Of a DNA stretch of 64,000 nt, positions 9,706-63,667 are shown piece by piece. The position numbers and the translations under genes are program-made. The notes beneath the pieces were generated by a model. It ran no database searches and was not told where the DNA came from. It saw only the letters and a program-made list of their open reading frames with translations. Origin of the DNA: Lysobacterales bacterium (GTDB taxonomy: Bacteria; Pseudomonadota; Gammaproteobacteria; Xanthomonadales; SZUA-5); assembly GCA_022841325.1 (NCBI GenBank), contig JALHRS010000020.1, positions 2,541 to 66,540 on the forward strand, given 5' to 3'. Positions within the stretch are counted from its first letter, which is position 1, and every line of letters begins with the position of its first letter.

Positions 9706-9789
9706 GCGAAAGTGGCGGAATGGTAGACGCGCTGGACTTAGAATCCAGTGGGGCAACCCGTGAGAGTTCGAGTCTCTCCTTTCGCACCA
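9706..9789 (+). tRNA. tRNA-Leu (anticodon UAG)
   Basis: Acceptor GCGAAAG/CTTTCGC, anticodon loop CTTAGAA, long variable arm, encoded CCA. Confidence 0.93.
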
Positions 9790-9844
9790 GAATCGGGCAG
9801 GCGCCTGGCGCCATGCGCGTATGTTTTGTGACTTTGGAGGTTTC

Positions 9845-30219: not shown

Positions 30220-30542
30220 TGACGGGGCAGGGGAGACGGGGCAGGGGGCACGGGAAGATGCGAGGGCGGTTGTGGGTCGAGGCTAGTGTGGACCTACGCG
30301 AGTGCGCTGGCGTAGGCCGGGTCCTTCGAGTGCGAAGGCTTTGATCGAGCCCCGGTCCACACACGCGAGGCGCCCGGCGGCCTTGGTTGGCCCGCCATGA
30401 CGCCGGCTGTTGTGGGTCCAGACTTGTCTGGACGCTTTTCTCGCTCACCGCGGAGAGCGTCCAGACAAGTCTGGACCTACAAGAGCCCGAAGTCCTTAGC
30501 CTTTCCCGTGCCCCGTGCCCCGTGCCCCGTGCCCCGTGCCCC
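30220..30542. repeat. Composite heptamer/palindrome element, copy A (degenerate GGGGCAS run, GGTCCAGACTTGTCTGGACGC / GCGTCCAGACAAGTCTGGACC pair, (GTGCCCC)x5)
   Basis: Read directly. Same architecture as 35547-35964 in the opposite orientation. Fills the spacer between the convergent stops at 30219 and 30546. Confidence 0.9.
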
Positions 30543-30545
30543 GTT

Positions 30546-31625
30546 TCACCGCCGCAATCGCGCCGGCGCCAGTCGTTCCGCTGCCGGTGTGGCCAGCAGG
30601 CGGTCGAGTGTGGCCAGGACCTCGTCGATCTCGATCAGGTCCATGACGCCGGGATACTCGATGCGGGTGCTCCAGCGCACCTGCTCCAGCTCCTGCCCGA
30701 GCTTGGCCCGCGCCACCTCGGGGAAGCGGTTCACGCACCACTGCAGGCTGCGATAGGGGCCGCTGCGGCGCGGATCGGTGGCGGCGTGCAAACCGATGAC
30801 CGGAACGCCGAGGGCACTGGCCAGGTGTGCTGGCCCGGAATCGGGCGAGACCACGGCGCTCATTCGCGACAGCAGCGCCAGCATCTGTTTCAGGGTGTCC
30901 TTGCCGACCAGATCGACACAATCGGCGTCCGGGGCCAGCCCGAGGATGGCGTCGGCCATCTGCCGCTCGCTGTCGCTGCGGCCACCGAGCAGCACTACCC
31001 GCATGCCATGGCGTTTGTGCGCGTGTCGGGCGAGTTCGGCATAGCCCTGCGGCGACCAGCTGCGCAGGGCGTGACTGGAGCAGGCGCTGATGCCCAGCAG
31101 CGGCGCATCCGCGGGCAGGCAGGATTCGGCAAAGGCCTGAGCCTCGTCGGGAATGACCAGCGGCCAGTGCAGCTGGTCGACCCGCACGCCCAGCGGTTCG
31201 CCAAAGCGACAGAGCGTCTCCAGTACATGGCTGTAGCCGTGATCGGCGATGCGTTCGTTGATGAACAGGCTGTGTCCCTCGCGCGAACGCAGGCGGTCGT
31301 AGCCGATGCGACGACGGGCGCGCAGGCCACGGCCGAGCACGTTGGCACGCAGCGCCAGCTGCATCATCAGCAAGGCGTCAAAAGTCTGTCCGCGCTGACT
31401 GCGCCACAGCGCGCGCATGCCGGCAAGGCCATCGCGCTTGCGATACGGCAGCAGGCGCACACCTTCGGTGCCGGCCAGCAGCTGGGCCTCGCCGGCGCCC
31501 AGGACCCAGCTGAGCTGATCCTGCGGCCGCTGCTGGCGCCAGGCGTGCACCAGGGGCAGCACATGGCTGACATCGCCCAGGGCGGACAGGCGCAAGATGC
31601 AGACCGATAGCGATGGCGAGTTCAC
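30546..31625 (-). CDS. Glycosyltransferase family 9 (LPS heptosyltransferase-like)
   Basis: ILRLSALGDVSHVLPLV N-terminal motif and DSGPAHLASALGVPVIGL C-terminal motif. GTG 31625 preferred (ORF opens at 31721, which would overlap kdkA). Confidence 0.8.
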   Translation of the reverse strand: MNSPSLSVCILRLSALGDVSHVLPLVHAWRQQRPQDQLSWVLGAGEAQLLAGTEGVRLLPYRKRDGLAGMRALWRSQRGQTFDALLMMQLALRANVLGRGLRARRRIGYDRLRSREGHSLFINERIADHGYSHVLETLCRFGEPLGVRVDQLHWPLVIPDEAQAFAESCLPADAPLLGISACSSHALRSWSPQGYAELARHAHKRHGMRVVLLGGRSDSERQMADAILGLAPDADCVDLVGKDTLKQMLALLSRMSAVVSPDSGPAHLASALGVPVIGLHAATDPRRSGPYRSLQWCVNRFPEVARAKLGQELEQVRWSTRIEYPGVMDLIEIDEVLATLDRLLATPAAERLAPARLRR

Positions 31626-31670
31626 GGCTATGCTTGGGCAGAGGATGGAGGGGAGAGTGCAAGAACCATC

Positions 31671-32408
31671 GTGAGCGAGTTGCCCTGTCAGACACAAGTC
31701 TGGACCGACGGCGATCTGCACATCGTCTACGATGCGGCGTGCCTGTCGCTGCCGACCAGTGACTGGTTTCTAGCAGATAGCTGGCCGCAGCGCAGCCTGC
31801 TTGCGGCCGGCAGGGGCAAGACCTGGGCCATCGAGGGACCTTTCGGAGCCGCCGTGCTGCGCCACTATCGTCGTGGTGGGGCACTGGCGCGGCTGCTCAG
31901 GGATCAGTATCTGTGGACGGGTCTGGAGGCCAGCCGGCCGCTGCGCGAATTTCGCCTGCTGGCCTCGGCCCTGAATGACGGATTGCCGGTGCCGCGGCCT
32001 CTGGCGGCGCGGATCGTGCGCGCGGGGGGCTTCTATTCGGGCGATCTGATCATGTCCCGCATCGCCGATGCCTGCGCACTGTCCACCCGTTTGGCGGAGC
32101 CCGGATCCTGGTCTGAACTCGACTGGAGCGCACTTGGCGAGGTCCTCGGGCGGGTGCATGCACTCGGCTACCAGCATGCCGATCTGAATGCCCACAACAT
32201 CCTGATCGATACTGCTGGCCGCTATTGGCTGATCGACTGGGATCGCGGCGTGCGCCGGCGCCCGGGGGAATGGCAGGCGCGGGTGCTGCAGCGTCTGCAG
32301 CGTTCCCTGCGCAAGCTGTATGCCGAGCGCGTCGACCAGGCCGATGCACGGCAGGCCTGGCAAAGGCTGCTGGATGCGCATGCGCGATCTGCGTCAGGGA
32401 CCCTCTGA
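31671..32408 (+). CDS. kdkA: 3-deoxy-D-manno-octulosonic acid (Kdo) kinase
   Basis: LRHYRRGG and HADLNAHNILID..WLIDWDRG motifs. Divergent from the GT9 gene. Confidence 0.8.
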   Translation: MSELPCQTQVWTDGDLHIVYDAACLSLPTSDWFLADSWPQRSLLAAGRGKTWAIEGPFGAAVLRHYRRGGALARLLRDQYLWTGLEASRPLREFRLLASALNDGLPVPRPLAARIVRAGGFYSGDLIMSRIADACALSTRLAEPGSWSELDWSALGEVLGRVHALGYQHADLNAHNILIDTAGRYWLIDWDRGVRRRPGEWQARVLQRLQRSLRKLYAERVDQADARQAWQRLLDAHARSASGTL

Positions 32409-32536
32409 ACAAGTGAGTCAAGATGGCCTGCCGCTAGACGCAGTCCGAAGGTCGTAGCCCATACTACGAAGCCGAGGACTGCAACGACGCGGTAGGCGAT
32501 CTTGGCCGCCGTCGCGGCCACGAAACTTGTTCAGAG
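32403..32536 (+). other. 134-nt multi-helix structured element closed by a perfect 12-bp stem
   Basis: CTCTGAACAAGT (32403-14) pairs with ACTTGTTCAGAG (32525-36). Nested helices: GCCTGCCGC/GCGGTAGGC (32426-34/32489-97, one G-U), hairpin TCGTAG-CCCATA-CTACGA (32452-69), hairpin TGGCCGC-CGTC-GCGGCCA (32503-20). Confidence 0.5.
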
Positions 32537-32554
32537 GATCGCTAACGTCCGCCC

Positions 32555-33343
32555 ATGCATAACCCTGACGTGTTTTCCTTCCGGTTTCTGGGTGTGGGCA
32601 GTGCCCAGGCGGCAGCCCTGGGCAGTTCCTGCGGCGTGCTCGAGCGCGCCGGTGTGCCGCTGCTGCTGATCGATATCGGCGTCGGTGCGCTGGATCGCTA
32701 CGCCCAGGTCTACAGCGATCCGCCAGCGGCGGTGTTCATCACCCATGCCCACCTCGATCACATCGGCGATCTCGAGCACTGGTTCTATCGCCTGGCCTTC
32801 AGGGCAAACCCGGGTCTGCCCAAACTGTTCGTGCCGGCGGCTGTTGTTCCGCTGCTGCAGCGTCGGGTGGCCGATTTCCCCAACTGGGTGGCAGAAGGTG
32901 GACGCAATTTCTGGGACATGTTCCAGTTGATCCCGGTCAGCGACTACTTCTGGCACGCCGGATTACGCTTCGCCGTCTTCCCGGTGCGTCACCATGCGCC
33001 CGAGAGTGCCTTTGGACTGGCCCTGCGCGGCAGCTTTCTCTACACCGGCGATACCCGCCCCATTCCAGAGTGGCTGCAGAAACATGCCCGCGAGGAGGAA
33101 CGCATCTTTCACGACTGCACCACCGAATCGAATCCCTCGCATACCGGGCTCGACGATCTGGAGCGCGAGTACGGAGCGGCTGTGCGCTCGCGCCTGGTGC
33201 TCTATCACTACGCCGACGATGAGGCGGCCGCGGCCATGCGGGTGCTAGGCTACGAGGTTGCAAGCTCTGGAGCCGTATACCCGTTGGCCAATCCAAACGA
33301 AGAAAGCACCGTGGAGCATTGGGCCGCCTGGAGTCAGTCGTGA
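32555..33343 (+). CDS. MBL-fold metallo-hydrolase
   Basis: FITHAHLDHIGD (HxHxDH) motif. Its stop overlaps the moaA start (GTGA). Confidence 0.8.
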   Translation: MHNPDVFSFRFLGVGSAQAAALGSSCGVLERAGVPLLLIDIGVGALDRYAQVYSDPPAAVFITHAHLDHIGDLEHWFYRLAFRANPGLPKLFVPAAVVPLLQRRVADFPNWVAEGGRNFWDMFQLIPVSDYFWHAGLRFAVFPVRHHAPESAFGLALRGSFLYTGDTRPIPEWLQKHAREEERIFHDCTTESNPSHTGLDDLEREYGAAVRSRLVLYHYADDEAAAAMRVLGYEVASSGAVYPLANPNEESTVEHWAAWSQS

Positions 33344-34383
33344 GCGCGGTGGCCGTACCCAGCGCCGAACACGCGGCGCTGGTCGACCGGCTGGCGCGGC
33401 CATTGCAGGATCTGCGAATCTCGGTCATCGACCGCTGCAACTTCCGCTGTCCCTACTGCATGCCTGAAGAACGCTACCCACGCGATCATGCCTTCATGGC
33501 GGCGGCGCAGCGGCTCAAGCCTGAGGAGATCGAGCGTCTGGCGCGATTGTTCGTGGGTCTGGGTGTGCGCAAATTGCGGCTCACCGGCGGTGAGCCGCTG
33601 TTGCGCCGTGACCTGCCCGAGATCATCTCGCGGCTGGCGGCCCTGCCGGGTGCGCCGGATCTGGCGCTGACCAGCAATGGCGTGCTGCTGACCCGCGATG
33701 CTGCAGCGCTGGCTGCGGCTGGCCTGCAGCGCATCACCATCAGTCTGGACGCGCTCGATCCGCAGATCTTCGCCGCCATGAGTGGTGGTCGCGGTCGGGT
33801 TGAGGATGTACTCGGTGGCCTCAGGCACGCGGCGGCAGCGGGCTTGTCGCCGATCAAGATCAACTGTGTGGTGCAGCGCGGCATCAACGAGACCGAAGTC
33901 ATGCCGCTGGTGGAACATTTCCGCGGCAGTGGCCAGATCGTGCGCTTCATCGAGTACATGGATGTCGGCACCTGCAATCGCTGGCAGGCCTCGGCGGTGG
34001 TGCCTTCGCGCGAGCTGCTGGCGCAGATTCATGCACGGTATCCGCTGGAGCCGGTGGATCCGGCCTACCGGGGCGAGGTTGCCGAGCGCTATCGTTTTCT
34101 CGATGGTGCCGGCGAGATCGGCTTCATCTCCTCGGTCAGCCAGCCCTTCTGCGGCCACTGCACCCGGGCGCGCGTATCCGCCGATGGGCGTTTGTACACC
34201 TGTTTGTTTGCCCGTGAGGGTCAGGATCTGCGTGCCCTGATCCGCGGTGATCAGGGCGATGGCGCGGTCGAGGCGATGATCGAGGCGATCTGGCGCAAGC
34301 GCCAGGATCGCTACAGTGAACAGCGCCAGCAGGCGCAACCGACCCGCGAGGGGCGCGTGGAAATGTACAGGATCGGCGGATGA
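33340..34383 (+). CDS. moaA: GTP 3',8-cyclase (molybdenum cofactor biosynthesis protein A)
   Basis: Radical-SAM CNFRCPYC, C-terminal CGHCTRARVSADG cluster, GG tail. Confidence 0.95.
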   Translation: MSAVAVPSAEHAALVDRLARPLQDLRISVIDRCNFRCPYCMPEERYPRDHAFMAAAQRLKPEEIERLARLFVGLGVRKLRLTGGEPLLRRDLPEIISRLAALPGAPDLALTSNGVLLTRDAAALAAAGLQRITISLDALDPQIFAAMSGGRGRVEDVLGGLRHAAAAGLSPIKINCVVQRGINETEVMPLVEHFRGSGQIVRFIEYMDVGTCNRWQASAVVPSRELLAQIHARYPLEPVDPAYRGEVAERYRFLDGAGEIGFISSVSQPFCGHCTRARVSADGRLYTCLFAREGQDLRALIRGDQGDGAVEAMIEAIWRKRQDRYSEQRQQAQPTREGRVEMYRIGG

Positions 34384-34865
34384 GTCTGACCCATGTGGAT
34401 GAGCGCGGAAGGCCGCGCATGGTCGATGTCGGTGCCAAGGCCGTGAGCGCCCGGATGGCGCGGGCCGAGGCCGAGATCGTGTTTCCGCCGGACATCGACA
34501 GCCAGCTGCGTGCGCAGGGCTTCCACGTGGCCAAGGGGCCGGTGCTGGCGACGGCGATCATCGCCGGGGTCATGGGCGCCAAGCGCACCTCCGAACTCAT
34601 CCCCTTCTGCCATCCGCTGTCGCTGGAAGATTGCGCCATCGAGATCGAACCGGGTGAGCAGGGCTGCTGGCGCGTGCTCTGCAGTGTCAAGCTCAATGCC
34701 CGCACCGGTGCCGAGATGGAAGCCCTGACCGGCGCTGCGGTGGCGGCGCTGGCGGTCTACGACATGTGCAAGGCGCTTTCGCCCGAGATCGAAATCCGGC
34801 GGTTGCGGCTGGTCGAGAAGCGCGGCGGCAAGCGCGACTATCTGCGCGCGGAGCAGGGTGGCTGA
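34380..34865 (+). CDS. moaC: Cyclic pyranopterin monophosphate synthase MoaC
   Basis: LTHVDERGRPRMVDV and KRTSELIPFCHPL motifs. ATGA overlap with moaA. Confidence 0.95.
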   Translation: MSLTHVDERGRPRMVDVGAKAVSARMARAEAEIVFPPDIDSQLRAQGFHVAKGPVLATAIIAGVMGAKRTSELIPFCHPLSLEDCAIEIEPGEQGCWRVLCSVKLNARTGAEMEALTGAAVAALAVYDMCKALSPEIEIRRLRLVEKRGGKRDYLRAEQGG

Positions 34866-35104
34866 TGCGGATCAGCGTGCTCTATTTCGCTGGTTTGCGC
34901 GCAGCCGCCGGGGTGGCCAGCGAAGAGCTGCAGTCCGATGCCGCGTCCTTGACCGCACTCTACGAGGAATTGCGGGCCCGCCACGGCTGGTCCTTTGCGC
35001 AGACATCGCTGCGGGTGGCGGTCAACGATGAGTTGGTGCCGTGGACCAGAGCCGTGCAGGAAGGTGATGTCATTGCCTTTCTGCCGCCGTTTTCCGGAGG
35101 TTGA
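34865..35104 (+). CDS. moaD: Molybdopterin synthase sulfur-carrier subunit MoaD
   Basis: 79-aa ubiquitin-like ORF ending in ...PPFSGG. Start overlaps the moaC stop. Confidence 0.85.
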   Translation: MRISVLYFAGLRAAAGVASEELQSDAASLTALYEELRARHGWSFAQTSLRVAVNDELVPWTRAVQEGDVIAFLPPFSGG

Positions 35105-35529
35105 GGGTGGCTGCACTGTTCGAACTGTCGACCGAGGCGCTGGATCCTGACGCGCTGCGCCGGCGCATCGAGGACCTCGGCTGTGGCGCGGTCGTCCTGT
35201 TCGAGGGCCGGGTGCGCGATCGCAATCGCGAGAGGCCGGTCGAGCGCATTGTTTACGAGGCCTTCGCCGCGGTGGCTCTGGCCGAGGGCAAGGCGGTGGT
35301 AGCACAAATGCAGTCAGCGCACGCCCTGAGCGAAGTGCTGGTGGTGCATCGCACCGGCGAGGTCGGGCTGGGAGAACTCGCTGTGTGGGTCGGCGTCAGC
35401 GCACCGCATCGCGACGCCGCCTTCGCCGGCTGCGCCGCCACCATCAGCGCCATCAAGGCCCGGGTGCCGATCTGGAAGCACGAGCATTACCGTGACGGCG
35501 GGCCGGAGTGGCTGCATCCGCTGCCGTAG
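35101..35529 (+). CDS. moaE: Molybdopterin synthase catalytic subunit MoaE
   Basis: GAVVLFEGRVRD and PIWKHE motifs. Start is TTG 35101 or GTG 35107. Confidence 0.9.
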   Translation: MRVAALFELSTEALDPDALRRRIEDLGCGAVVLFEGRVRDRNRERPVERIVYEAFAAVALAEGKAVVAQMQSAHALSEVLVVHRTGEVGLGELAVWVGVSAPHRDAAFAGCAATISAIKARVPIWKHEHYRDGGPEWLHPLP

Positions 35530-35546
35530 CGGCAGGGGGCGTTTCT

Positions 35547-35964
35547 GGTTGTCGGTTGTCGGTTGTTGGTTGTTGGTTGTTGGTTGTCGGGGCACGGGGC
35601 ACGGGGCACGGGGCACGGGGCACGGGGCACGGGGAAAGGCTACGAGCTTCGGGCTCTTGTAGGTCCAGACTTGTCTGGACGCTTCTCCAGCCGGAAGGCC
35701 AAGGGTGCCGCGCAGCGGCTCCCCGGCGCTTCTGCGTCCTGTGCGTGCCGGTGAACGCGCCTGCGGCGCGCACCCTCGGCATCTACGCGCTGCACCGGCA
35801 ACCAACAACCGACAACCAGAAACCACCCCCCCGCCCCGAAACAGGAGCGTCCAGACAAGTCTGGACCCACAAGAGCCCTCGCATCTTCCCGTGCCTCGTG
35901 CCCCGTGCCCCGTGCCCCGTGCCCCGTGCCCCGTGCCCCGTGCCCCGTGCCCCAACAACCAACA
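35547..35964. repeat. Composite heptamer/palindrome element, copy B: (GGTTGTY)x6 (GGGGCAC)x6 - linker - GGTCCAGACTTGTCTGGACGC ... GCGTCCAGACAAGTCTGGACC - linker - (GTGCCYC)x9 - AACAACCAACAG
   Basis: Unit boundaries counted by hand: 35547-35588, 35589-35630, 35662-35682, 35799-35819 (three CAACCRR units), 35847-35867, 35891-35953. Confidence 0.92.
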
Positions 35965-35970
35965 GCGCCC

Positions 35971-36000
35971 TTGAGCCCACCCCTGCCGCTCAGCTATGAT
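35971..36000 (+). promoter_or_regulatory. Candidate sigma70 promoter (TTGAGC-N18-TATGAT) for tRNA-Ser(GGA)/ffs
   Basis: Hexamers read directly, 55 nt upstream of the tRNA. Confidence 0.4.
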
Positions 36001-36054
36001 CGCTGGCTCGCTGGGGTGAGCCCGATTGGGGTGAGCCGGGCGAGAGTCGGAAGT

Positions 36055-36147
36055 GGAGAGATGTCCGAGCGGTTGAAGGAGCACGCCTGGAAAGTGTGTA
36101 AACGGCTAAACCCCGTTTCGAGGGTTCGAATCCCTCTCTCTCCGCCA
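36055..36147 (+). tRNA. tRNA-Ser (anticodon GGA)
   Basis: Acceptor GGAGAGA/TCTCTCC, anticodon loop CTGGAAA, long variable arm, encoded CCA. Confidence 0.95.
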
Positions 36148-36191
36148 CTTCCCACTCCGGGTGTCGGCACATCGATACCTTCAGTTTCTGC

Positions 36192-36307
36192 GGTGGTCCC
36201 TGTCGGTCCCCCCGCGTCGCAAGGCCGTCAACCCCGCCAGGCCCGGAAGGGAGCAACGGTCGCGGTTCGAGCGGGCGCCGGGGTGTGGCTGGCAGGGATC
36301 ACCACCC
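36192..36307 (+). ncRNA. ffs: Signal recognition particle RNA (4.5S, small bacterial type)
   Basis: CCAGGCCCGGAAGGGAGCAAC matches the domain IV GGAA-tetraloop region. The 3' end GCTGGCAGGGATCACCACCC parallels the E. coli 4.5S 3' end and pairs with GGTGGTCCCTG at the 5' end. Lies immediately upstream of dnaX, as in many bacteria. Ends approximate. Confidence 0.8.
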
Positions 36308-36346
36308 CTGAGCGATCATGACCCCTCGATCCTCTGGAATTCCCCA

Positions 36347-37996
36347 ATGAGCTATCTGGTTCTGGCGCGCAAATGGCGTCCCCGCCGTTTTTCCGAACTG
36401 GTCGGACAGCAGCACGTCGTGCGCGCGCTGGTCAACGGGATCGAGTCCGGTCGCCTGCATCACGCCTTCCTGTTCACCGGCACCCGTGGTGTCGGCAAGA
36501 CCACCATCGCCCGCATTCTGGCCAAGGCCCTGAACTGCGAGACCGGTGTCAGCGCCGAGCCCTGTGGTGAGTGCTCTTCGTGCAAGGACATCGATGCCGG
36601 TCGCTTTGTCGATCTGCTGGAGATCGATGCGGCCTCGCGCACCAAGGTCGACGACACCCGCGAGCTGCTCGACAACGTCATCTATGCGCCGAGCCGTGGT
36701 CGCTACAAGGTCTATCTGATCGACGAAGTGCACATGCTTTCGGCGCACAGCTTCAATGCGCTGCTGAAGACCCTGGAAGAGCCGCCGCCGCACGTCAAGT
36801 TCCTGCTGGCCACCACCGATCCGCAGAAGCTGCCGGTCACGGTGTTGTCGCGTTGTCTGCAGTTCAGTCTGAAACGTCTGGAACGGGCCGAGATCGACGG
36901 CCAGATGCGGCGCATTCTCGACGCCGAGGAGCTGAGCTACGAGCTGCCGGCCATCGCTGCGCTGGCGCGTGCCGCCGATGGCAGTCTGCGCGATGGCCTG
37001 AGTCTGCTCGATCAGGCGCTGGCCTTCGGCAGCGGCAGTGTTCGTCACGAGGATGTGCTGGCGATGCTCGGCACCATCGACCGCAAGGCGCTGGCCAATC
37101 TCGGCACCGCCCTGATGCAGGGTGACCGCGCCGCGCTGCGCCTTGAACTGGCGCGCATCGCCGAGCTGTCGGTCGACTACTCCGGTTTGCTGTCGGAACT
37201 GCTGGTGCTCTGGCACGATGTCGCTGCCCGTCAGGTGCTCGGCGATGATGTCGAATCGGAACTGGTCGACGACGACGTTTTGCTGCAACTTGCCGAAGGG
37301 CTGTCTCCGGAAGACACCCAGCTGTTCTATCAGCTGACGCTGCTGGCGCGGCGCGACCTCGATCTGGCGCCGGACCATCGCACCGGATTCGAGATGGCGA
37401 TGCTGCGACTGCTGGCGTTCCGGCCGCTGCCCGGCGGCGATGAACGGCAGCATGCGGGCACACGCGCGCCAACGCAGCAGCAGGCACCCAGATCGCCATC
37501 CGCGTCTGCCCCGGCGCGGCCGGAAGCGGCGCCAAAAGCGATGGCCGCGCCGGTGCGGGCCATGCCGATGGCAACCTCCGCGGCCATACCGGCCAAACCC
37601 GCGGCGCCAGCCTCGGCGGTCGCCGAAGCCTGGTTCGAGCTGCTCGACCGCATCGATCTGCGTGGGCCCTCGCGTGAACTCGCTGGGCGGCTCCGCGCGC
37701 TGGAGCGGGTGGGGCACAGCTGGAAACTGGCGCTGGCGCCATCGCTGGAAAGTCTGAATTCGGAATTCGCCCGCCGTGGCCTGGAAGCTGCGGTGCGCGC
37801 GGCGCTGGGCGCAGAGGCCAGCCTCGACATCCAGCTGCGCGTGGCCGAGGGCGAAACCTGGGCCGAACGCGGCGCCCGTGCCCGCAGCGAGCACATGGCC
37901 GCGGCTGAACAGACCTTGCTGGCAGATCCGGGATTGCAGGCGCTCACCCAGGAGTTCGGTGCGCGCGTGGTGCCGGGCTCACTGCAAGTCGATTGA
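36347..37996 (+). CDS. dnaX: DNA polymerase III subunits gamma/tau
   Basis: MSYLVLARKWRPRRFSELVGQ, Walker A GTRGVGKTT, Zn module CGECSSC, SRC motif. Low-complexity tau linker. Confidence 0.95.
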   Translation: MSYLVLARKWRPRRFSELVGQQHVVRALVNGIESGRLHHAFLFTGTRGVGKTTIARILAKALNCETGVSAEPCGECSSCKDIDAGRFVDLLEIDAASRTKVDDTRELLDNVIYAPSRGRYKVYLIDEVHMLSAHSFNALLKTLEEPPPHVKFLLATTDPQKLPVTVLSRCLQFSLKRLERAEIDGQMRRILDAEELSYELPAIAALARAADGSLRDGLSLLDQALAFGSGSVRHEDVLAMLGTIDRKALANLGTALMQGDRAALRLELARIAELSVDYSGLLSELLVLWHDVAARQVLGDDVESELVDDDVLLQLAEGLSPEDTQLFYQLTLLARRDLDLAPDHRTGFEMAMLRLLAFRPLPGGDERQHAGTRAPTQQQAPRSPSASAPARPEAAPKAMAAPVRAMPMATSAAIPAKPAAPASAVAEAWFELLDRIDLRGPSRELAGRLRALERVGHSWKLALAPSLESLNSEFARRGLEAAVRAALGAEASLDIQLRVAEGETWAERGARARSEHMAAAEQTLLADPGLQALTQEFGARVVPGSLQVD

Positions 37997-38953: not shown

Positions 38954-39277
38954 GAGAGGTGGGAAAAAGGGAAAGGGAAAAAGGAAAAGGGTAAGAGCGG
39001 TCTGCAGCACCCCGATCTGTCGCTTGGGTGTCCTTTCCCACGTGAGAGGGGCGGGAAAAAGGAAAAGGGGAAAAGGGAAAGGGGAGGAGCGTCGGGCAAG
39101 AACTTGACGCTTGGGCGAAGGCGCACGACATTGTGCAACCCAGCTGATTGCGGATTGCTGGTCCTCGCTGCGGAGCAGGTGGCTCGCTCCTTTGGAATGC
39201 GGCGGGAAAGTGCAGCGTGCCGGCTCTTCCTTTTTCCCTTTTCCTTTTTCCTTTTTCCTTCCCCTTACCTTTTCCCA
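38952..39277. repeat. Three roughly 45-nt polypurine/polypyrimidine tracts (two direct GGGAAAAGG-type blocks at 38952-38997 and 39044-39089, one inverted block at 39225-39277)
   Basis: Read directly. Block 3 is the approximate reverse complement of block 1. Confidence 0.85.
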
Positions 39278-39318
39278 GGCTCCAATAAGCCCCTACACAG
39301 CGCAAGGCTCCCAATCCC

Positions 39319-45357: not shown

Positions 45358-45372
45358 GCACGGCGATGACGC

Positions 45373-45679
45373 GGGGCACGGGGCAGGGGGCACGGGGCAC
45401 GGGGTGGTCTGCGGGGCCGTGCGGCCTTCTGGCGCGTGCATTCCCGTGCGCGGAGATGAAGCGGGGCACGGGGCACGGGGCATGGGGCACGGGATGTGCT
45501 GAGGGCGTTTGTCGACTTGCTACACAGGCTTTCCCTCTAGAGCTTGAGCGCAGAAAAGCGGCACTGAGCGCCTACCCCCCAATCCGCCCCTGCTTTTCCC
45601 CTGCCCCGTGCTCCGTGCCCCGTGCCCCCGCTTCGCGTGCCCCGTGCCCCGTGCCGAGTTCCCCAGCTTCTCGTGCCCC
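45373..45679. repeat. Heptamer-array inverted element, copy C: GGGGCAC blocks (45373-45400, 45463-45490) facing GTGCCCC blocks (45601-45628, 45637-45650, 45673-45679)
   Basis: Read directly. Occupies the 343-nt spacer between the two co-oriented RND permease genes. Confidence 0.9.
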
Positions 45680-45700
45680 GTTCATCTGGAGCCGCCACCC

Positions 45701-48700
45701 ATGACCCTCGCCGAAATCGCTCTGAAGCGCCCGGTCACCGCGATCATGCTGTTCGTCAGTTGCGTGGTCTTCGGGCTGCTGAGCGCGCGCATGCTCAAGC
45801 TGGAGTTCTTTCCGGAGCTGGATGCGCCCTTCATTCTGGTGCAGGTGCCGTATCCGGGCTCCACGCCCAAGGAAGTCGAGCGCGAGATCGTGCGTCCGCT
45901 CGAAGAATCGCTGGCGACGATTTCCGGTATCGACCGGATGTTCGCCAATGCCGATGAAAACGGCGCCTTCTTCTTTCTGGTGTTCGACTGGAATCGCAAC
46001 GTCAAGGTCAAGCTGTCGGAGGTGCGTGAGCGGGTGGATGCCATCCGCGGCGAACTCCCCAAGGACATCCAGCGCATCCAGGTCCTGAAGTTCTCGACCA
46101 ACGATGAACCGGCGTTGCAGATTCGCCTGTCCAGCACCACCGGCAATCTGCTGGACGCCTACGATCTGCTCGAACGCCGCATCAAGCGTCCGCTGGAACG
46201 CATACCGGGCGTAGCCTCGGTCGAGCTGTCCGGGGTGGAACCCAACGAAGTCCGCATCGATCTGCTGCCCGAGCGCATCGCCTCGCACAACATTGATCTC
46301 AATGCCTTGTCGCAGCGGATTCAGTCAGCCAATTTTTCGACCTCGGCCGGACTCATCCACGATGGCGATCAGCGCTATCGGGTGCAGCCGGTGGGCGAGA
46401 TCCGCAGTCTGGAGGAATACGGCGATCTGGTCATCAACGATGCCGGCCTGCGGCTGCGCGATGTGGCGGAAATTCGCTACATGCAGCGTGAGATCAACTT
46501 CCGTCGCATCCTCAATGGCAATTACGCGGTCGGTGTGGACATCCGTCGCGAGCGCGGTGCCAATCTGGTGGATGTCTGTGCCAATGTGCTGGCCGAGGTA
46601 CGCCGGATCGAGGCCAGCGGCGCCCTGGCTGGCATCGAGCTCTACATGATCGGCAATCAGGGAGAGGGTATTACCAGTTCGCTCGGGGAACTGGTCAAAT
46701 CCGGTGCCCAGGGCATGCTCTTCGCCGTGCTGATCCTGTACTTCTTCCTGCGCCACTGGCCGAGCACGCTGATGGTGTCGCTGTCGGTGCCGATCTGTAT
46801 CGCCATCAGTCTGGGGGCCATGTATTTCCTCGGACTCACGCTCAATGTGCTGACCATGATGGGTCTGTTGCTGGGTATAGGCATGCTCGTCGACAACGCG
46901 GTGGTCGTGACCGAGAGCATCTATCAGCAGCGGGAGAAGCGACCGGGAGATCCGGTCGGAACCGCCATCGAGGGCACCCGGATGGTGCAGCTGGCGGTCA
47001 GTGCCGGCACGCTGACCAGCATCATCGTATTCCTGCCCAATGTGTTCGGGGGCACCACCCAGGTCGGTGTTTTCCTCTACTACGTGGCCATGCCGATGTC
47101 GGTCGCCTTGCTGGCCTCGTGGTTCGTGGCGGTCAGCATCATTCCGATGCTGGCCTCACGCATCGAACCGCCCAAAGGCTTGTCGCAAGTGCGCATCGTC
47201 GAGCATTGGAAGCTGCTGTACGGCCGTCTGCTGCACTGGACCCTGAACCATCGCGGCTGGGCCCTGATGGGCGTGCTGCTGATCTTCGCCAGCGTGGCCA
47301 TTCCCGCCAACCTGGTGAAGACCGATTTCTTCGGCGGCAGCGGCAAGCGCGATTTCAGCATCGGCTATGAGCTCAACGGACGCTACCGGCTGGATCAGCT
47401 GGAGCCGGCGGCGCGCGCGGTGGAGGCTTTCCTGCTGCGCCACAAGGAGGAGTTCGAGATCGAATCGGTGTACAGCTGGCTGTCCGAGGATCAGGGCATG
47501 CAGACCCGATTGCAGCTGGTCAAGGACGACCAGGCCACTCGGCCTCTGGAGGAAATCAAGCAGGCCGTGCGTGACGGCCTGCCACAGCTGGCCATCGGCA
47601 AGGCCGTGGTCGATCTGCGCCAGGGGCCGGGTGGCGGCAACGCCGGCAGCACCGATACGCCCAGCGTCAGTGTCAGCATCAATGGCGATTCCACCGAAGT
47701 GCTGACCGAGGTGGCCAAGGACGTGGCGCGCCTGCTCGCCAGCCATGAGGAATTCGCCGAAGTTCGTGCCGATGATGCGCAGGAGCAGCAGGAAGTGCAG
47801 CTGCGCATCGATCGCGATCGCGCCTCGAATCTGGGTTTCGACCCGGCTCAGGTAGGCCAGCTGATTCAGGTGGCCATGCGCGGCGTACCGCTGCGCGAGT
47901 TCCGCCAGGGCGACACCGAGGTGCCGGTGTGGCTGCGCTTCAAGGATGCCGAGTCACTGTCGCTGGACGATCTCAAGGAAATCCGCATCACCCGTGCCGA
48001 TGGCGAATCGGTGCCGCTGTCGACGCTGGTGTCGGTCGATGTCTCGCCCAGCGCCCGCCAGATCGGCCGGCAGAATCGCAAGACCAGTCAGTCGATCACC
48101 ATCGATCTCAAGCCCAACGGAGACATGGGCAAGGCCCGCGAGATCATCGAGAGCAGTCTCAAGGACTACCCCTTCCCGTCCGGCTACAGCTACGATCTGG
48201 GCCAGCGCTTTCAGGACGATGCGGCTGCTGCATCCGAAATGATGTTCCTGCTGCTGCTGTCCATCGTGCTGATCTACATGGTGATGGCGGCCCTGTTCGA
48301 ATCGGCGGTCTATCCCATCGCCATCCTGATCTCGATCATGTACGCGGTGGTGGGCGTCTGGTGGACCTTCCTGGTCTGGGACACCACCTTCTCGGTCATG
48401 GCCTTCATCGGCATCATGATCCTGACCGGCGTGGTGGTGAACAACGGCATCGTGCTGGTCGAGCATGTGAACACGCTCAGGCGCGCCGGGCATGATCGCG
48501 AGCGCGCCCTGATTCTGGGCGGACAGGAACGCCTGCGGCCGATTTTGATCACCACCGGCACCACCTTCCTCGGGCTCTTGCCCCTGTGCATCAGCGATGT
48601 CGGCATCGGTGGCGACGGCCCGGCGTACTATCCGATGGCCAGGGCCATTGCCGGCGGACTGGTTTTCTCCACTGCCATCACCCTGGTGGTGCTGCCCACG

Positions 48701-49564: not shown

Positions 49565-49675
49565 CAAACGCAGAGAGCGCAGAGGGTCGCGGAGAACGCC
49601 GAGAACAGCTGATTCAGGTTTGCCTCTGTTTTCCTTCGCGTACTTTCTGCTTTTCCTTTGCGTTCTTTGCGCCCG
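49565..49675. repeat. Family-1 repeat copy (CGCAGAGAGCGCAGAGGGTCGCGGAGAACGCCGAGAACAGCTGATT... with a degenerate inverted arm)
   Basis: Left arm about 85% identical to 462-510. Confidence 0.7.
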
Positions 49676-49747: not shown

Positions 49748-49843
49748 TTCGCGGACAGAGTCCGCTCCCACAGGGGGAACAAGTTCGCGGACAGAGTCCG
49801 CTCCCACCGGGCGAACAAGTTCGCGGACGAAGTCCGCTCCCAC
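49748..49843. repeat. Three tandem REP-like hairpins TTCGCGGAC(A/G)A(G/A)GTCCGCTCCCAC, period 36 nt
   Basis: Units at 49748-49771, 49784-49807 and 49820-49843. Reverse complement of the GTGGGAGCGGAC..GTCCGCGA core seen at 57671. Confidence 0.85.
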
Positions 49844-49869
49844 AGGGAGAGCCAGCGGTCGCGCGAGGG

Positions 49870-53137: not shown

Positions 53138-53256
53138 CGCAGAGAACGCCGAGAGGCGCAGAGAACGCTGAGGGGCGCAGAGAACGCTGAGAGGCGCAAG
53201 AGCCATTCTTGTTCAGCTCTTCTCAGCGTTCTCTGCGCCCCTTGGCGTTCTCTGCG
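53138..53256. repeat. Family-1 repeat, expanded copy: three direct 19-nt units CGCAGAGAACGCYGAGRGG followed by two inverted units
   Basis: Units at 53138-56, 53157-75 and 53176-94. Inverted TCTCAGCGTTCTCTGCG at 53221-37 and GGCGTTCTCTGCG at 53244-56. Confidence 0.85.
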
Positions 53257-57610: not shown

Positions 57611-57673
57611 GGTTGCCGGATGTGGGTTGCCGGTTGTGGGTTGTCGGTTGTCGGTTGTCGGTTGTCGGTTGTG
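57611..57673. repeat. Heptamer array, copy D: nine GGTTG(Y)(S)-type units (GGTTGTC x4 core)
   Basis: Units counted by hand. Starts 9 nt after the pilU stop. Confidence 0.88.
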
Positions 57674-57695
57674 GGAGCGGACTTTGTCCGCGATC
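57671..57695. repeat. REP-like hairpin GTGGGAGCGGACTTTGTCCGCGATC
   Basis: Same core as 27894 and, inverted, 49748-49843. Confidence 0.75.
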
Positions 57696-57773: not shown

Positions 57774-58447
57774 GACAGCACTTCCTTCAGCAGCGGCACG
57801 GTGATGCGGCGGCTTCGGGCCAGGGCTTCGCGGTCGAGGTCGGCGAGGGTCTGCAGCAGGGTGCGCAGATCGCGGCTGTGGTGTCGCAGCAGATAATCGG
57901 CGGCGGCCTCGTCCAGCGGCATGCCGGCGTGCCCGGCGCGTTGCATCAGGATGGCCTTGCGGGCCTCGTCGTCGTGGCGTTCGATGCGCAGCATCTCTGA
58001 TCTGGCCAGGCGCGAAGCCAGGTCCGGCAGTATGGCGGTTGCAGCATCCGATTCGCTGCCCAGAGCCAGCAGCAGGGCGCGCTGGCGATCATGCTGGCGG
58101 TTGATTTCGGCAAACAGCCATTCCGCCAGCGCGCGGTCGCCCAGCGCCAGTCCAACATCATCAATGGCCACCAGTTCAGCATCCAGCGGCTCTGCGGGCG
58201 TGCCCGCTTGCAAGCGCGCCAGGGGCAGATAGACCGCGCTGTGCCCCGCGGCCCGCGCGGCATCGCAGCAGGCCATCAGCAGATGAGTCTTGCCGGACGA
58301 CGGTCCGCCGCCCACCAACACCTGCGAGGAACCCGGACTGTCGGCGAGCGCCCGCAGGCGAGCCAGCAGCAAGCTGTCGTTGCCAGCCCAGAAACTGTCG
58401 AAATCCGGCGTGCCCAGCCCGCCGAGCGCCAATGGCATCTGACTCAT
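57770..58447 (-). CDS. hda: DnaA regulatory inactivator Hda
   Basis: Short AAA+ protein (GGPSSGKTHLL Walker A). Position next to the perM-like gene, near purMN. Confidence 0.85.
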   Translation of the reverse strand: MSQMPLALGGLGTPDFDSFWAGNDSLLLARLRALADSPGSSQVLVGGGPSSGKTHLLMACCDAARAAGHSAVYLPLARLQAGTPAEPLDAELVAIDDVGLALGDRALAEWLFAEINRQHDRQRALLLALGSESDAATAILPDLASRLARSEMLRIERHDDEARKAILMQRAGHAGMPLDEAAADYLLRHHSRDLRTLLQTLADLDREALARSRRITVPLLKEVLS

Positions 58448-59739
58448 CTGGGTTTGGGTTTCGACGGTTTGCGCCGTGCGGCCTTGGGTTTGGCTGCGGC
58501 GGTTGGAGCGAGTGTCGGAGTTGGAGCTGGAGTTGGAGCTGGAGTTGGAGCTGGAGTTGGAGCTGGTGTTGGAGCTGAGGCCGGTGTCGGTGTCGGTTCA
58601 GAGGCCAAAGCCGAGTCCGAAGCCAAAGCCGAATCCGAAGCCGAGCCCGAAGCCGAATCTGAAGCCAGCGCAGGTGCCGGGCCTGCGCCTTCGCGATAGA
58701 GGCCGCTGGCCACGTACTGCTCGTGGACGTGGCGCAGCACCACCATCAGCACCGCCGTGACCGGCAGCGCCAGCAGGATGCCGATGAAACCGAACAGTTG
58801 CCCGCCGGCGAGGATGGCGAAGATCACCGCGACCGGATGCAGGCCGATGCGGTCACCGACCAGCCAGGGCGTGAGCACGAAACCTTCCAGCGTCTGGCCG
58901 ACACCGAAGACGGCCAGCACGTAGACCACGTGGATGAGGTCGCGATGCTCGACCAGCGCCGCGATGACGGCGCCGCCGACGCCGAGAATGCTGCCCAGGT
59001 AGGGCACGAAGCTCAGCAGCCCTGCACTCATGCCGATCAGGAAGGCCAGTTTCAGTCCGGCCAGCCACAAGCCGAAGGAGTAGATCAGGCCCAGCGCCAG
59101 CATCACCGCGAGCTGGCCGCGCAGGAAGGCGCTCAGCACCTCGTCCGATTGCCGGGCGATGTTGACCACGCGCGCTTCGACCGTACGCGGCAGCAGCTCG
59201 CGCACGCGCTCGATCATCAGATCCCAGTCGCGCAGGAAGTAGAAACTCACCACCGGAATCAGCAGCAGGTTCATGATCCAGCCGATGATGGCCAGACCGG
59301 ATTTGGACACCGAGGCGATGACCGTGGCGGCGATGCCGCCGGCCTGCTGCCAGTGTGATTTAAGCATGGCCACGATCTGATCGGTGCTGAACAGCTCCGG
59401 ATCGACGCCCAGATGCTCCACCAGGAAGGGCATCAGGCGTTCGCGTATCCAGCCGATGTACAGCGGCAGTTTCTCCACCAGCGTGCTGATCTGGGCTTCC
59501 AGCAGCGGGATCAGGATCAGCGGCAACAGCAGCAGCACCAGGGTCATGACCGCGAACACGATCGACACCGCCGCGCTGCGCCCCAGCCCTCGCGACTGCA
59601 GTCGATCGACCAGCGGATCGCCCAGATAGGCCAGCAGGGCCGCCATCGCGAAGGGCGTGAGAACGGGCCCGAGCAGGTACAGCAGCAGGCCGATGCCGAA
59701 CAGGATGGCCAGCAGTTGCCAGCGGTGGGTCATGGTCAT
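58444..59739 (-). CDS. AI-2E family transporter (PerM-like) with a repeat-encoded low-complexity C-terminal tail
   Basis: Eight-TM AI-2E-type core. Tail ASDSA.. / (TPAP)n / KPKAARRKPSKPKPR. Stop overlaps the hda start (ATGA). Confidence 0.85.
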   Translation of the reverse strand: MTMTHRWQLLAILFGIGLLLYLLGPVLTPFAMAALLAYLGDPLVDRLQSRGLGRSAAVSIVFAVMTLVLLLLPLILIPLLEAQISTLVEKLPLYIGWIRERLMPFLVEHLGVDPELFSTDQIVAMLKSHWQQAGGIAATVIASVSKSGLAIIGWIMNLLLIPVVSFYFLRDWDLMIERVRELLPRTVEARVVNIARQSDEVLSAFLRGQLAVMLALGLIYSFGLWLAGLKLAFLIGMSAGLLSFVPYLGSILGVGGAVIAALVEHRDLIHVVYVLAVFGVGQTLEGFVLTPWLVGDRIGLHPVAVIFAILAGGQLFGFIGILLALPVTAVLMVVLRHVHEQYVASGLYREGAGPAPALASDSASGSASDSALASDSALASEPTPTPASAPTPAPTPAPTPAPTPAPTPTLAPTAAAKPKAARRKPSKPKPR

Positions 59740-63151: not shown

Positions 63152-63240
63152 TTGCACTGCTGTGAAGGGCGCCGCGCTGCGGCCGTGCTTCTGGATTTCT
63201 GCGCTACGCTGTCCGTGAACCCATTTCGTAAGTTGTTGAT

Positions 63241-63328
63241 GCGTCATTGCGAGGAACGCAGTGACGAAGCAATCCAGTGCTTCTGAGACCGTGCTTTCTG
63301 GATTGCTTCGCTACGCTCGCAATGACGC
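63241..63328. repeat. Family-2 palindromic element, second copy
   Basis: GCGTCATTGCGAGGAACGCAGTGACGAAGCAATCCAG ... CTGGATTGCTTCGCTACGCTCGCAATGACGC. Shares the CGTAAGTTGTTGAT flank with 11457-11469. Confidence 0.85.
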
Positions 63329-63376
63329 ATCAACCACTCGCGATCTCGGTTCTGGGGTACGCCGCTTCCTCTGGCA

Positions 63377-63586
63377 CCCACAACCCACAACCCACAACCC
63401 ACAACCCACAACCCACAACCCACAACCAACAACCAACAACCAACAACCAACAACCAACAACCAACAACCAACAACCAACAACCAACAACCAACAACCAAC
63501 AACCCACAACCCACAACCCACAACCCACAACCCACAACCAACAACCCACAACCAACAACCGACAACCAACAACCGACAACCGACAA
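63377..63586. repeat. Heptamer array, copy E: 30 tandem CC(C/A/G)ACAA units
   Basis: Counted by hand: CCCACAA x7, CCAACAA x11, CCCACAA x5, then a mix of 7 units including CCGACAA x3. Confidence 0.95.
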
Positions 63587-63667
63587 CCGCTCCAAACCCC
63601 CGATAAGCGCGCATTCATGCGTCAGGGGCTGGAATGCACGTCCAAGTCCAGGTGCACATGATTGCCG

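Follow-up and report, generated by a model that had tools for sequence, protein, structure and literature searches.

In this study, we analyzed a repeat-rich element at positions 35547-35964 of a 64,000-nucleotide stretch of DNA (the window) from a Lysobacterales bacterium (GenBank assembly GCA_022841325.1, contig JALHRS010000020.1). The element lies between the stop codon of moaE and the promoter region of a tRNA-Ser(GGA) gene. It is a nested non-coding mosaic of intergenic repeats rather than one unitary 418-bp unit, and its identity as a combination of repetitive extragenic palindromic (REP) sequences with arrays of tandem heptanucleotides is regarded as highly probable. A role of its predicted hairpin as a barrier at RNA 3′-ends is put forward tentatively, and the explanation that joins both parts is considered moderately probable. 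The original prediction, made from the letters of the sequence, had described one composite element of 418 bp; this description had to be revised, as the modules recur separately and the content varies among close relatives.

Composition of the moaE/tRNA-Ser element

Re-reading of positions 35000-36600 showed that all feature coordinates of the original prediction are exact to the base, and also the flanks are as it had described them. On the left, MoaE (Pfam PF02391, E = 1.3e-29) ends at 35529, and the distance from its stop codon to the outer left array is 18 nt. On the right, tRNA-Ser(GGA) is located at 36055-36147 and the signal recognition particle (SRP) RNA at 36201-36297. Tandem arrays were detected with Tandem Repeats Finder (TRF), and arm pairing by an inverted-repeat search. 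The element and its right boundary consist of the following features:

35547-35588, + strand: outer left heptamer array (GGTTGTY)x6 (TRF: period 7, 6.3 copies, 94% matches)
35589-35630 (to 35634 with a partial unit), + strand: inner left heptamer array (GGGGCAC)x6 (TRF; G4Hunter 2.0)
35631-35661, + strand: left linker GGGGAAAGGCTACGAGCTTCGGGCTCTTGTA, beginning GGGGAAAGGCT (sequence reading)
35631-35658, + strand: linker type L1, with the junction motif GGGAAAGGCT first (35632-35641) and a small GAGC-TTCGG-GCTC hairpin within
35662-35682, + strand: left palindrome GGTCCAGACTTGTCTGGACGC of 21 nt (sequence reading)
35659-35682, + strand: left REP copy GTAG-GGTCCAGAC-TT-GTCTGGAC-GC, left partner of the head-to-head pair
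35683-35846, no strand: 164-nt interior with an inverted pair of a third palindromic motif (35697-35728 and ~35757-35780), CAACCRR units and a C-run
35847-35867, - strand: mirror palindrome GCGTCCAGACAAGTCTGGACC (sequence reading)
35847-35870, - strand: right REP copy GTGGGTCCAGACTTGTCTGGACGC, right partner of the pair
35871-35890 (linker from 35868 after the 21-nt palindrome), - strand: second linker, type L2, minus-strand reading GGGAAGATGCGAGGGCTCTT
35891-35953, - strand: right heptamer array (GTGCCYC)x9, on the minus strand (GGGGCAC/GAGGCAC)x9 (TRF)
35954-35964, - strand: ~1.5 AACAACC units, AACAACCAACAG, short partner of the outer left array (inverted-repeat search)
35971-36000, + strand: promoter-like TTGAGC-18-TATGAT for tRNA-Ser, 7 nt past the element, setting the right boundary

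The arrays have TRF scores of 67, 94 and 125, all with period 7 and 94-100% matches. The inverted-repeat search recovered array arms of 64 nt with 94% complementarity and palindrome-plus-flank arms of 36 nt with 94% (35651-35686 / 35843-35878). It also revealed three CAACCRR units at 35799-35819 in the interior, which are complementary to the outer left array. The third motif of the interior, GTGCCGCGCAGCGGCTC, is present as an inverted pair and has a low copy number, with 6 matches across the fetched data. Linker L2 looks like a shorter variant of L1. The window contains 22 occurrences of (GGGGCAC)x3 and four of the tagged 24-nt palindrome, compared with 0.00 expected from dinucleotide shuffles in both cases.

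The long open reading frames (ORFs) crossing the element have no Pfam match, and relatives vary in this region by 7-nt steps, an inversion and large indels, which agrees with the absence of a coding signal noted in the original prediction. Searches against Rfam in gathering and E-value modes yielded no relevant family for the element; the sole match with E < 1 was an irrelevant archaeal snoRNA model (22 bits versus a threshold of 71). A CRISPR-like array was also considered and rejected, since there is no spacer/repeat layout.

The palindrome as a GTAG-tagged REP

The 21-nt palindrome had been left unassigned in the original prediction. It proved to be an ordinary REP carrying a GTAG tag, like those listed by Di Nocera et al. 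2013 (PMC3733652), with the structure GTR-GGTCCAGAC-TT-GTCTGGAC-GC. We assign it to the GTAG superfamily because of the succession of tag, GT, 6-bp stem, TT loop, return stem and short tail, together with the excess of head-to-head neighbors described below; the published layout of GTAG, GW, stem and 3-nt tail was read from the GTAG-1/2 feature table, and the likeness is thus one of layout and not of consensus. The conserved unit reads GCTYTKGTR-GGTCCAGAC-TT-GTCTGGAC-GC-T-Y-T-T, GCTYTKGTR being the 5′ flank and GC-T-Y-T-T the 3′ tail. Among 149 copies with an exact core, the three flank positions beside the core are occupied by G (98%), T (96%) and G/A (80/19%), and the tag in the element has the form GTAG/GTGG.

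Four REP copies are present in the window, arranged as two inverted pairs and all located in intergenic gaps. Among the matches listed (one genome per species), three metagenome-assembled genomes (MAGs), assigned to a Lysobacterales bacterium (JBFWOF), an uncultured Rhodanobacteraceae (CALEZI) and a Xanthomonas sp. (JAIMJQ), each have dozens of loci with the core GGTCCAGACNNGTCTGGAC; the other matches, isolated in unrelated taxa, we take as chance. For about 230 oriented copies, 62 neighbor relations are head-to-head, 54 head-to-tail and 5 tail-to-tail. The head-to-head dimers carry their GTAG tags outside and have a spacer mode of 25-26 nt. Such a dimer is what Bertels & Rainey 2011 (PMC3116915) call a REPIN, and as in a REPIN forming one hairpin, the plus-strand REP of the element pairs with the minus-strand REP in the minimum-energy folds of both RNA and DNA, with 31 pairs in REPs and flanks. 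In E. coli, REPs are known to be moved by REP-associated tyrosine transposases (RAYTs), and the same has been proposed for Pseudomonas and Stenotrophomonas (PMC3116915, PMC3733652).

The window also contains a second REP type, GTGGGAGCGGAC-N3-GTCCGC, at 49751-49841 and 57673-57691. At the former site, a 36-nt head-to-tail tandem array of this type comprises 2.8 copies (49748-49847), and 9-, 19- and 22-nt tandem repeats rich in CGCAGAGA are found nearby (also at 49569-49668 and 53138-53198). Similar repeats of the CGCGGAGA type flank arrays in the related loci L002 and L061.

Heptamer arrays in the window and in related loci

The arrays belong to the class of G-rich heptameric simple sequence repeats (SSRs) that Rehm et al. 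2015 (PMC4692102) described for Xanthomonas. Among the tandem repeats of the window and the fetched loci, period 7 is the most frequent, with 81 arrays versus at most 33 for any other period (TRF). The units found include GGGGCAC, GGTTGTC/T, GGGGGCT, GGGACTC, GGGAATC and GGGAAAA. The window arrays are intergenic; they start 2-18 nt past stop codons (2-11 nt if the moaE array is set aside) or terminate shortly ahead of the following gene or promoter. The polarity of the arrays is strict: neighboring arrays are G-rich and then C-rich in 31 cases versus 5, and all five exceptions concern arrays more than 500 nt apart with unrelated units.

Further arrays of the GGTTGTY family are located at 57611-57672 and, as the complement, at 63376-63588 of the window, as well as in related MAG loci. 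At 57611-57695, (GGTTGYC)x9 begins 9 nt past a stop codon and runs into the second REP type GTGGGAGCGGACTTTGTCCGCGAT, the last heptamer GGTTGTG overlapping the 5′ TTGTGG of this REP. This hints that GGTTGTY arrays may derive from a REP 5′ flank. The array at 63376-63588, (ACCAACA)x30, is with 213 nt the longest heptamer array of the window; it is C/A-rich on the plus strand, occupies the right end of its spacer and lacks a G-rich partner on the left side.

Linkage between arrays and REPs

Where arrays occur near the GTAG REP, they sit on its tagged side with a modal gap of 27-31 nt. Apparent 3′-side arrays at 71-85 nt are the same arrays viewed across the dimer partner, and the one true exception to this rule is the interior array of locus L038. 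A shared layout, (heptamer)n-GGGAAAGGCT-N17-YTKGTR-REP, was found in four genomes, with the heptamer varying between GGGGCAC, GAGGCAC, GGGCACT and GGCGCGC. Of 151 outer REP copies, 20 have the motif GAAAGG at positions -28 to -30, compared with about 0.1 expected by chance according to our base-composition estimate. In the moaE/tRNA-Ser element, linkers of 20-28 nt connect the arrays with their REPs. The fixed 27-31-nt junction GGGAAAGGCT may be new, as the papers searched do not mention it. A metagenome scan with an array/junction 18-mer gave 82 matches, three with a real array and one with a REP; by our estimate, most of them are chance for a pattern of that length and a collection of that size.

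Inverted heptamer pairs that enclose no GGTCCAGAC-type REP are present at 38961-39275 and 45361-45681 of the window and in L057, L068, L043 and L032, and others hold different REP types (L061, L002). Heptamer pairs thus enclose varied REPs or none, and therefore the arrays are the outer frame in which the palindromic repeats are nested. The gap of about 340 nt between two long ORFs at 45358-45701 is filled by four arrays, the first two being direct (GGGGCAC) and the last two inverted (GTGCCCC); the upstream ORF has as its ortholog in L101 a gene with PF00873 (ACR_tran, a transporter of the resistance-nodulation-division (RND) type), and no GGTCCAGAC-type REP lies inside. Also, a palindromic family GCGTCATTGCGAGGA-N-GCGACGAAGCAATCCAG occurs as inverted pairs (window 63230-63340, L025 6210-6300, L103 ~2330-2400), nested in heptamer-bracketed spacers of several genomes.

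Sister mosaic and recurring modules

A second mosaic of the same kind is present in the window:

30220-30545, no strand: sister mosaic in opposite orientation, exactly filling a convergent intergenic gap

It has a degenerate GGGGCAG array at its left end, followed by L2, the remnant of a decayed REP, a stretch of about 130 nt, a REP dimer, a variant L1′ of the first linker and, on the right, (GTGCCCC)x5.7. Its canonical REP dimer (30412-30480) has tagged copies at 30412-30435 (+) and 30457-30480 (-), which are 21 nt apart. The array+L1+REP module of 90 nt from the moaE/tRNA-Ser element is repeated here in inverted orientation at 30456-30544 with 95.6% identity, and the L2+array module at 30222-30278 with 87.7% identity over 57 nt (L2 itself at 30253-30276), while the interiors of the two mosaics are unrelated.

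REP+interior+REP of the moaE/tRNA-Ser element also recurs at a different locus of the congeneric MAG JBFWOF (L038 4346-4620) with 83% identity over 284 nt; the interior alone is about 91% identical, and the locus adjoins tRNA-gene-like sequence. The orthologous elements of L101, L102 and L104 have linker L2 as well, at their left end. Both linker types thus recur at 30.2 kb, at 35.6 kb, in L038 and in L101-L104, as is typical of linkers in bacterial interspersed mosaic elements (BIMEs).

Comparison of orthologous spacers

The window and related genomes both contain related copies outside the element, as anticipated in the original prediction. The window has about 93% nucleotide identity to JBFWOF (GCA_050250665.1) and about 91% to GCA_041395365.1 and several metagenome contigs; the MAG JAIMJQ is more distant (76-83%). 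The spacer between the moaE stop and tRNA-Ser was compared with the congeners L101-L104 (flank identity ~91-93%) and the distant relative L081 (76-83% identity):

Window: 525 nt
L103: 595 nt
L102: 904 nt
L104: 974 nt
L101: 1020 nt
L081: 146 nt

A homologous mosaic is present in each of the four congeners; its arrays immediately follow the moaE stop on one side and immediately precede the tRNA promoter on the other. The spacer interiors in the congeners measure between about 160 and about 650 nt and contain different nested repeats. In the short-read MAG assemblies, the right array has 9.4 units in the window, 9.3 in L102, 10.3 in L108 (a fifth contig, with homologous arrays just upstream of dnaX) and 23.3 in L101, and L101, L102 and L104 are otherwise near-identical. 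In L103, the closest relative, about 1.5 GTGCCCC units are left on the right side together with 7.9 AACAACC units.

The segment between the inverted GGGGCAC arrays has opposite orientation in the window and L103 versus L101, L102 and L104. Window positions 35588-35686 match L104 2589-2491 in reverse with 92% identity and the L104 left end in forward direction with 78%, and positions 35794-35912 match L104 1926-1811 in reverse with 89%. Recombination between the inverted arrays would be the simplest cause of this inversion.

In L081, the moaE/tRNA-Ser spacer has no arrays but only a plain hairpin (about 18 bp, -39.6 kcal/mol), which immediately follows the moaE stop. Some form of hairpin is thus located directly 3′ of the moaE stop in six of six genomes examined, and the promoter-like site TTGAGC-18-TATGAT of tRNA-Ser is kept in L081 and in L101-L104. 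At 4357-4440 of L081, a canonical head-to-head REP dimer separates moaD from moaE, and moaE is not followed by one. The reverse is found in the window and L101-L104, in which moaD and moaE are adjacent and REPs follow moaE, a distribution as expected for mobile REPs.

The recR/HIT spacer shows a comparable turnover. In the window (38954-39318, 365 nt), it holds two direct arrays of the (GGGAAAA) type and one inverted array of the (TTTTCCC) type, and in six relatives (154 nt) it holds (AAAACGT)3...(ACGTTTT)3; the unit differs, and the inverted layout is the same.

Predicted folding

The original prediction had pointed out that the two ends are reverse complements and that a hairpin is possible. 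Indeed, one long GC-rich hairpin was predicted by RNA and DNA folding of positions 35530-35975, with -303.1 kcal/mol for RNA (shuffles -207 ± 6.9; z = -13.9) and -174.5 kcal/mol for DNA (z = -13.95). The left and right arms form 105 pairs, among them 63 between the arrays besides those in the REPs and their flanks. On the minus strand, two terminator-like sites were found at 35828-35866, one being the REP hairpin (0.8 expected in shuffles); the REP tails (GC-T-Y-T-T) are T-enriched but short. A canonical intrinsic terminator on the plus strand was rejected, as there was no match on this strand.

Proposed explanation and evidence against it

We propose that the core of the element is a head-to-head GTAG REP pair (REPIN) in which the 25-26-nt spacer would have been replaced by a nested insert of 164 nt with more palindromic repeats. 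This core is bracketed by an inverted pair of G-rich heptanucleotide arrays, which flank the REPs on the side of the GTAG tag, the junction motif being GGGAAAGGCT. The REPs are presumably mobilised by a RAYT-type HUH tyrosine transposase, array copy number would shift through replication slippage, and the interior may have been inverted via recombination between the inverted arrays. A transcript leaving moaE would carry the G-rich arm and then the complementary C-rich arm and could fold into a hairpin with about 105 inter-arm pairs. Acting as a 3′-end barrier, either by attenuation of read-through or by blocking exonucleases, this hairpin may separate the moa operon from the tRNA-Ser/ffs/dnaX unit, whose promoter lies 7 nt past the element. 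If the C-rich arm were transcribed first, Rho would find a free site to load on it; as the second arm, it would be paired at once, which could account for the polarity with the G-rich arm 5′.

Several points weigh against this explanation. RAYT genes, which encode HUH-Y1 transposases, are usually single-copy and typically flanked by the same REPs. In the 64-kb window and about 0.86 Mb of scattered related loci, no RAYT was found, neither by a regular-expression search for the HUH/Y motif in six-frame ORFs nor by tblastn with an E. coli RayT query. The big hairpin is not followed by a U-tract on the plus strand and hence is not a canonical intrinsic terminator. The array lengths stem from short-read MAG assemblies, which break at such arrays and may be mis-assembled. 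Also, the arms are unequal (6+6 versus 9+1.5 units) and vary independently among relatives, so that tight selection on pairing is disfavored. Finally, hairpin formation alone leaves the near-universal polarity with the G-rich arm 5′ unaccounted for. The tblastn search also gave a weak match in L061 (E = 0.1) to an ORF without HUH/Y motif, which was judged unrelated from its sequence alone.

Alternative explanations

It is rather unlikely that the element is neutral, with slippage-prone microsatellites and selfish REPs accumulating in a tolerant spacer and the hairpin as a by-product. The wide variation of content and length among congeners (525-1020 nt), the complete lack of the mosaic in the distant relative L081, the unequal copy numbers of the arms and the nesting of at least three repeat families would fit such a scenario, but not the position of the arrays close to ORF ends, their strict polarity (31 versus 5), the hairpin after moaE in all six genomes examined and the inverted layout of the recR/HIT spacer, which is kept despite the replaced heptamer unit. 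In Xanthomonas, the gene neighborhoods of repeat-bearing spacers are unusually stable, and the type of single or paired array is usually preserved (PMC4692102). An improbable alternative is a G-quadruplex (G4) or i-motif element, in which the GGGGCAC arrays (with the C-arms as i-motif) in DNA or RNA would regulate the flanking genes, as was proposed with respect to G4 for the GGGAATC arrays of Xanthomonas (PMC4692102). The fit of the GGGGCAC runs to the canonical G4 pattern, noted in the original prediction, was confirmed: (GGGGCAC)6 has G4-N3 repeated at least four times, with G4Hunter scores of 2.0 for the left and -1.83 for the right arm. Related heptamers of Xanthomonas form G4 in vitro and prefer four units (PMC4692102), and the G-rich strand always reads 5′ to 3′ away from the nearest ORF. 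However, only 35 of the 81 period-7 arrays in the lineage fit the G4/C4 pattern, so that G4 formation is not their common denominator; the abutting GGTTGTY array scores 0.64, and the AAAACGT arrays at the recR/HIT spacer of the relatives cannot form G4. Moreover, every G-arm of the element has a complementary C-arm, and the predicted hairpin of -303 kcal/mol would compete. These points weaken the G4 reading.

A unitary transposon resembling a miniature inverted-repeat transposable element, moving as a whole with array+linker+REP as terminal inverted repeats, is decidedly improbable. In its favor, inverted copies of both end modules are present at 30222-30544 (identities of 95.6% over 90 nt and 87.7% over 57 nt), and REP+interior+REP is found at a different locus in L038; yet no target-site duplication is visible, as the left boundary (...GCGTTTCT / GGTTGTC) and the right boundary (CAACAG / CGCCCTTG) show no direct repeat. 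The two window copies have unrelated interiors, modules are also found alone or in other combinations, and the array units vary from copy to copy (GGGGCAC, GAGGCAC, GGGCACT, GGCGCGC). We consider it very improbable that the right array serves as a promoter-proximal protein-binding or spacer array tuning the tRNA-Ser promoter in the style of an UP element or a variable number tandem repeat. It does end 7-18 nt upstream of the conserved TTGAGC -35 motif in the window and the four congeners, with variable copy number, but the same architecture is present at promoterless convergent gene ends (30220-30545) and in an intercistronic gap of two RND genes, and units varying by locus make a single sequence-specific binder unlikely. 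An assembly artefact or a hidden protein-coding gene has a negligible probability. Short-read contigs do break in the arrays, as seen for the Logan contig L001 (identical to window 30518-35575), which has both ends inside heptamer arrays, and long ORFs cross the element. An artefact was nevertheless rejected because homologous arrays are present in four independently assembled MAGs (L101-L104) and in contig L108. Against a gene stand the ORFs without Pfam match and the variation of relatives by 7-nt units, inversion and large indels. In L108, a gene caller had set a 170-aa ORF, also without Pfam match, across the array (252-764).

Finally, the module array-GGGAAAGGCT-N17-GTAG-REP might be generated or moved as a unit of which the arrays are an integral part, e.g., by the RAYT reaction or by hairpin-templated synthesis, and the polarity would then result from a strand-specific process. 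This possibility is judged unlikely. If true, it would explain both how the heptamer excess of Xanthomonadales arises and what it is for: the C-rich arm may, for example, be sequestered once transcribed and allow no Rho loading, which would make such elements sequence-independent bidirectional transcription barriers.

Further observations and significance

Two other sites of the window may be mentioned. ARAGORN calls a tRNA-Ser(CGA) at 9721-9806 (-) which overlaps tRNA-Leu(TAG) at 9706-9789 (+); Rfam backs the plus-strand gene only, and the minus-strand call is probably false. At 58502-58666, hexamer repeats (GGAGCT/GGAGTT, GCCGAA; periods 6, 12, 18 and 24) within the minus-strand ORF 58444-59739 probably represent a low-complexity protein segment.

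The results show that inverted heptamer arrays of the Xanthomonas type extend to another Lysobacterales lineage with different units, some of which cannot form G-quadruplexes, and thereby weaken the G4 explanation. The coupling of arrays and GTAG REPs at a fixed distance via a conserved junction is not described in the papers searched. The orthologous spacers, in which the layout is kept while unit, copy number and orientation of the enclosed segment change, offer a natural system to distinguish selection on structure from selection on sequence. In practical terms, the arrays break short-read assemblies and yield spurious ORF calls.

Comparison with known repeat systems

Mosaics of REPs have reportedly been described as BIMEs in E. 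coli by Gilson et al. 1991 (see also Ton-Hoang et al. 2012, cited in PMC3733652), and their protein partners are integration host factor (IHF), gyrase and DNA polymerase I. The present element has in common with them REPs in alternating orientation, few recurring linkers (here L1 and L2) and a location at gene 3′ ends or between cistrons. BIMEs are not known to have microsatellite arms, and the linker and REP sequences are unrelated. Comparable GTAG-tagged REPs are the SMAG repeats of Stenotrophomonas. With the published GTAG REPs, the palindrome shares the GTAG/GTGG tag, GT, the 6-bp stem, the TT loop, the return stem and the short conserved tail (PMC3733652). Likewise, it is multi-copy, intergenic (window copies), mostly head-to-head with a maintained spacer length, and variable in its presence at orthologous sites. 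In some of the published cases, REP dimers also sit inside longer flanking palindromes (PMC3733652). The copy at moaE/tRNA-Ser differs in its spacer of 164 nt instead of about 25 nt, owing to the nested insert, and about 13-15% of the outer copies have the 5′ extension GGGAAAGGCT-N17 preceded by a heptamer array.

Cyanobacterial short tandemly repeated repetitive (STRR) sequences are intergenic tandem heptamers of unknown function, and the likeness to them drawn in the original prediction is apt. Both these and the TAACTGA repeats of Beggiatoaceae are intergenic tandem heptamers as well, differing in phylum or family and in their units. Inverted pairing is rare in Nostoc heptamers (PMC4692102), and PMC4679880 gives only one indirect repeat among 169 repeat sets for Beggiatoaceae. 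A literature search by heptamer sequence returned unrelated eukaryotic and viral papers only.

The closest counterpart of the arrays is found in Xanthomonas, contrary to the statement of the original prediction that no equivalent was described in gammaproteobacteria. X. campestris and X. axonopodis have about 185 GGGAATC-type heptamer arrays per genome, of which 89-93% are intergenic, at a mean distance of 28 nt from the 5′ neighboring ORF and including 70-75 convergent inverted pairs per genome (PMC4692102). Their length varies among species, the repeat type (single or inverted pair) is usually kept, and the repeat-bearing spacers have unusually stable gene neighborhoods; most arrays are transcribed, their function being unknown (PMC4692102). 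The same source states that these heptamers were not identified in other gammaproteobacteria and reports no association with mobile elements. The arrays studied here share period 7, units with G-tracts, the intergenic position with the G-rich strand at most ~50 nt past a stop codon, convergent pairs, a copy number variable among relatives with the single or paired type kept, and the same bacterial order. They deviate from the consensus GGGAATC/GGGANTN, as the units of the element are GGGGCAC, which has a tract of four G, and GGTTGTY, which has only GG and is not G4-capable; GGGAATC and GGGACTC arrays do appear in the related MAG loci L068 and L025. Both ingredients, REPs and heptamer arrays, are thus already known in Xanthomonadales/Lysobacterales, and the element represents no new category. 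Modestly new are the fixed linkage of array, junction and REP, the heptamers that do not fit G4, and the turnover with conserved layout. Compared with the arrays of Xanthomonas, those of the present host, which is another Lysobacterales lineage, are distinguished by their coupling to REPs at a fixed distance.

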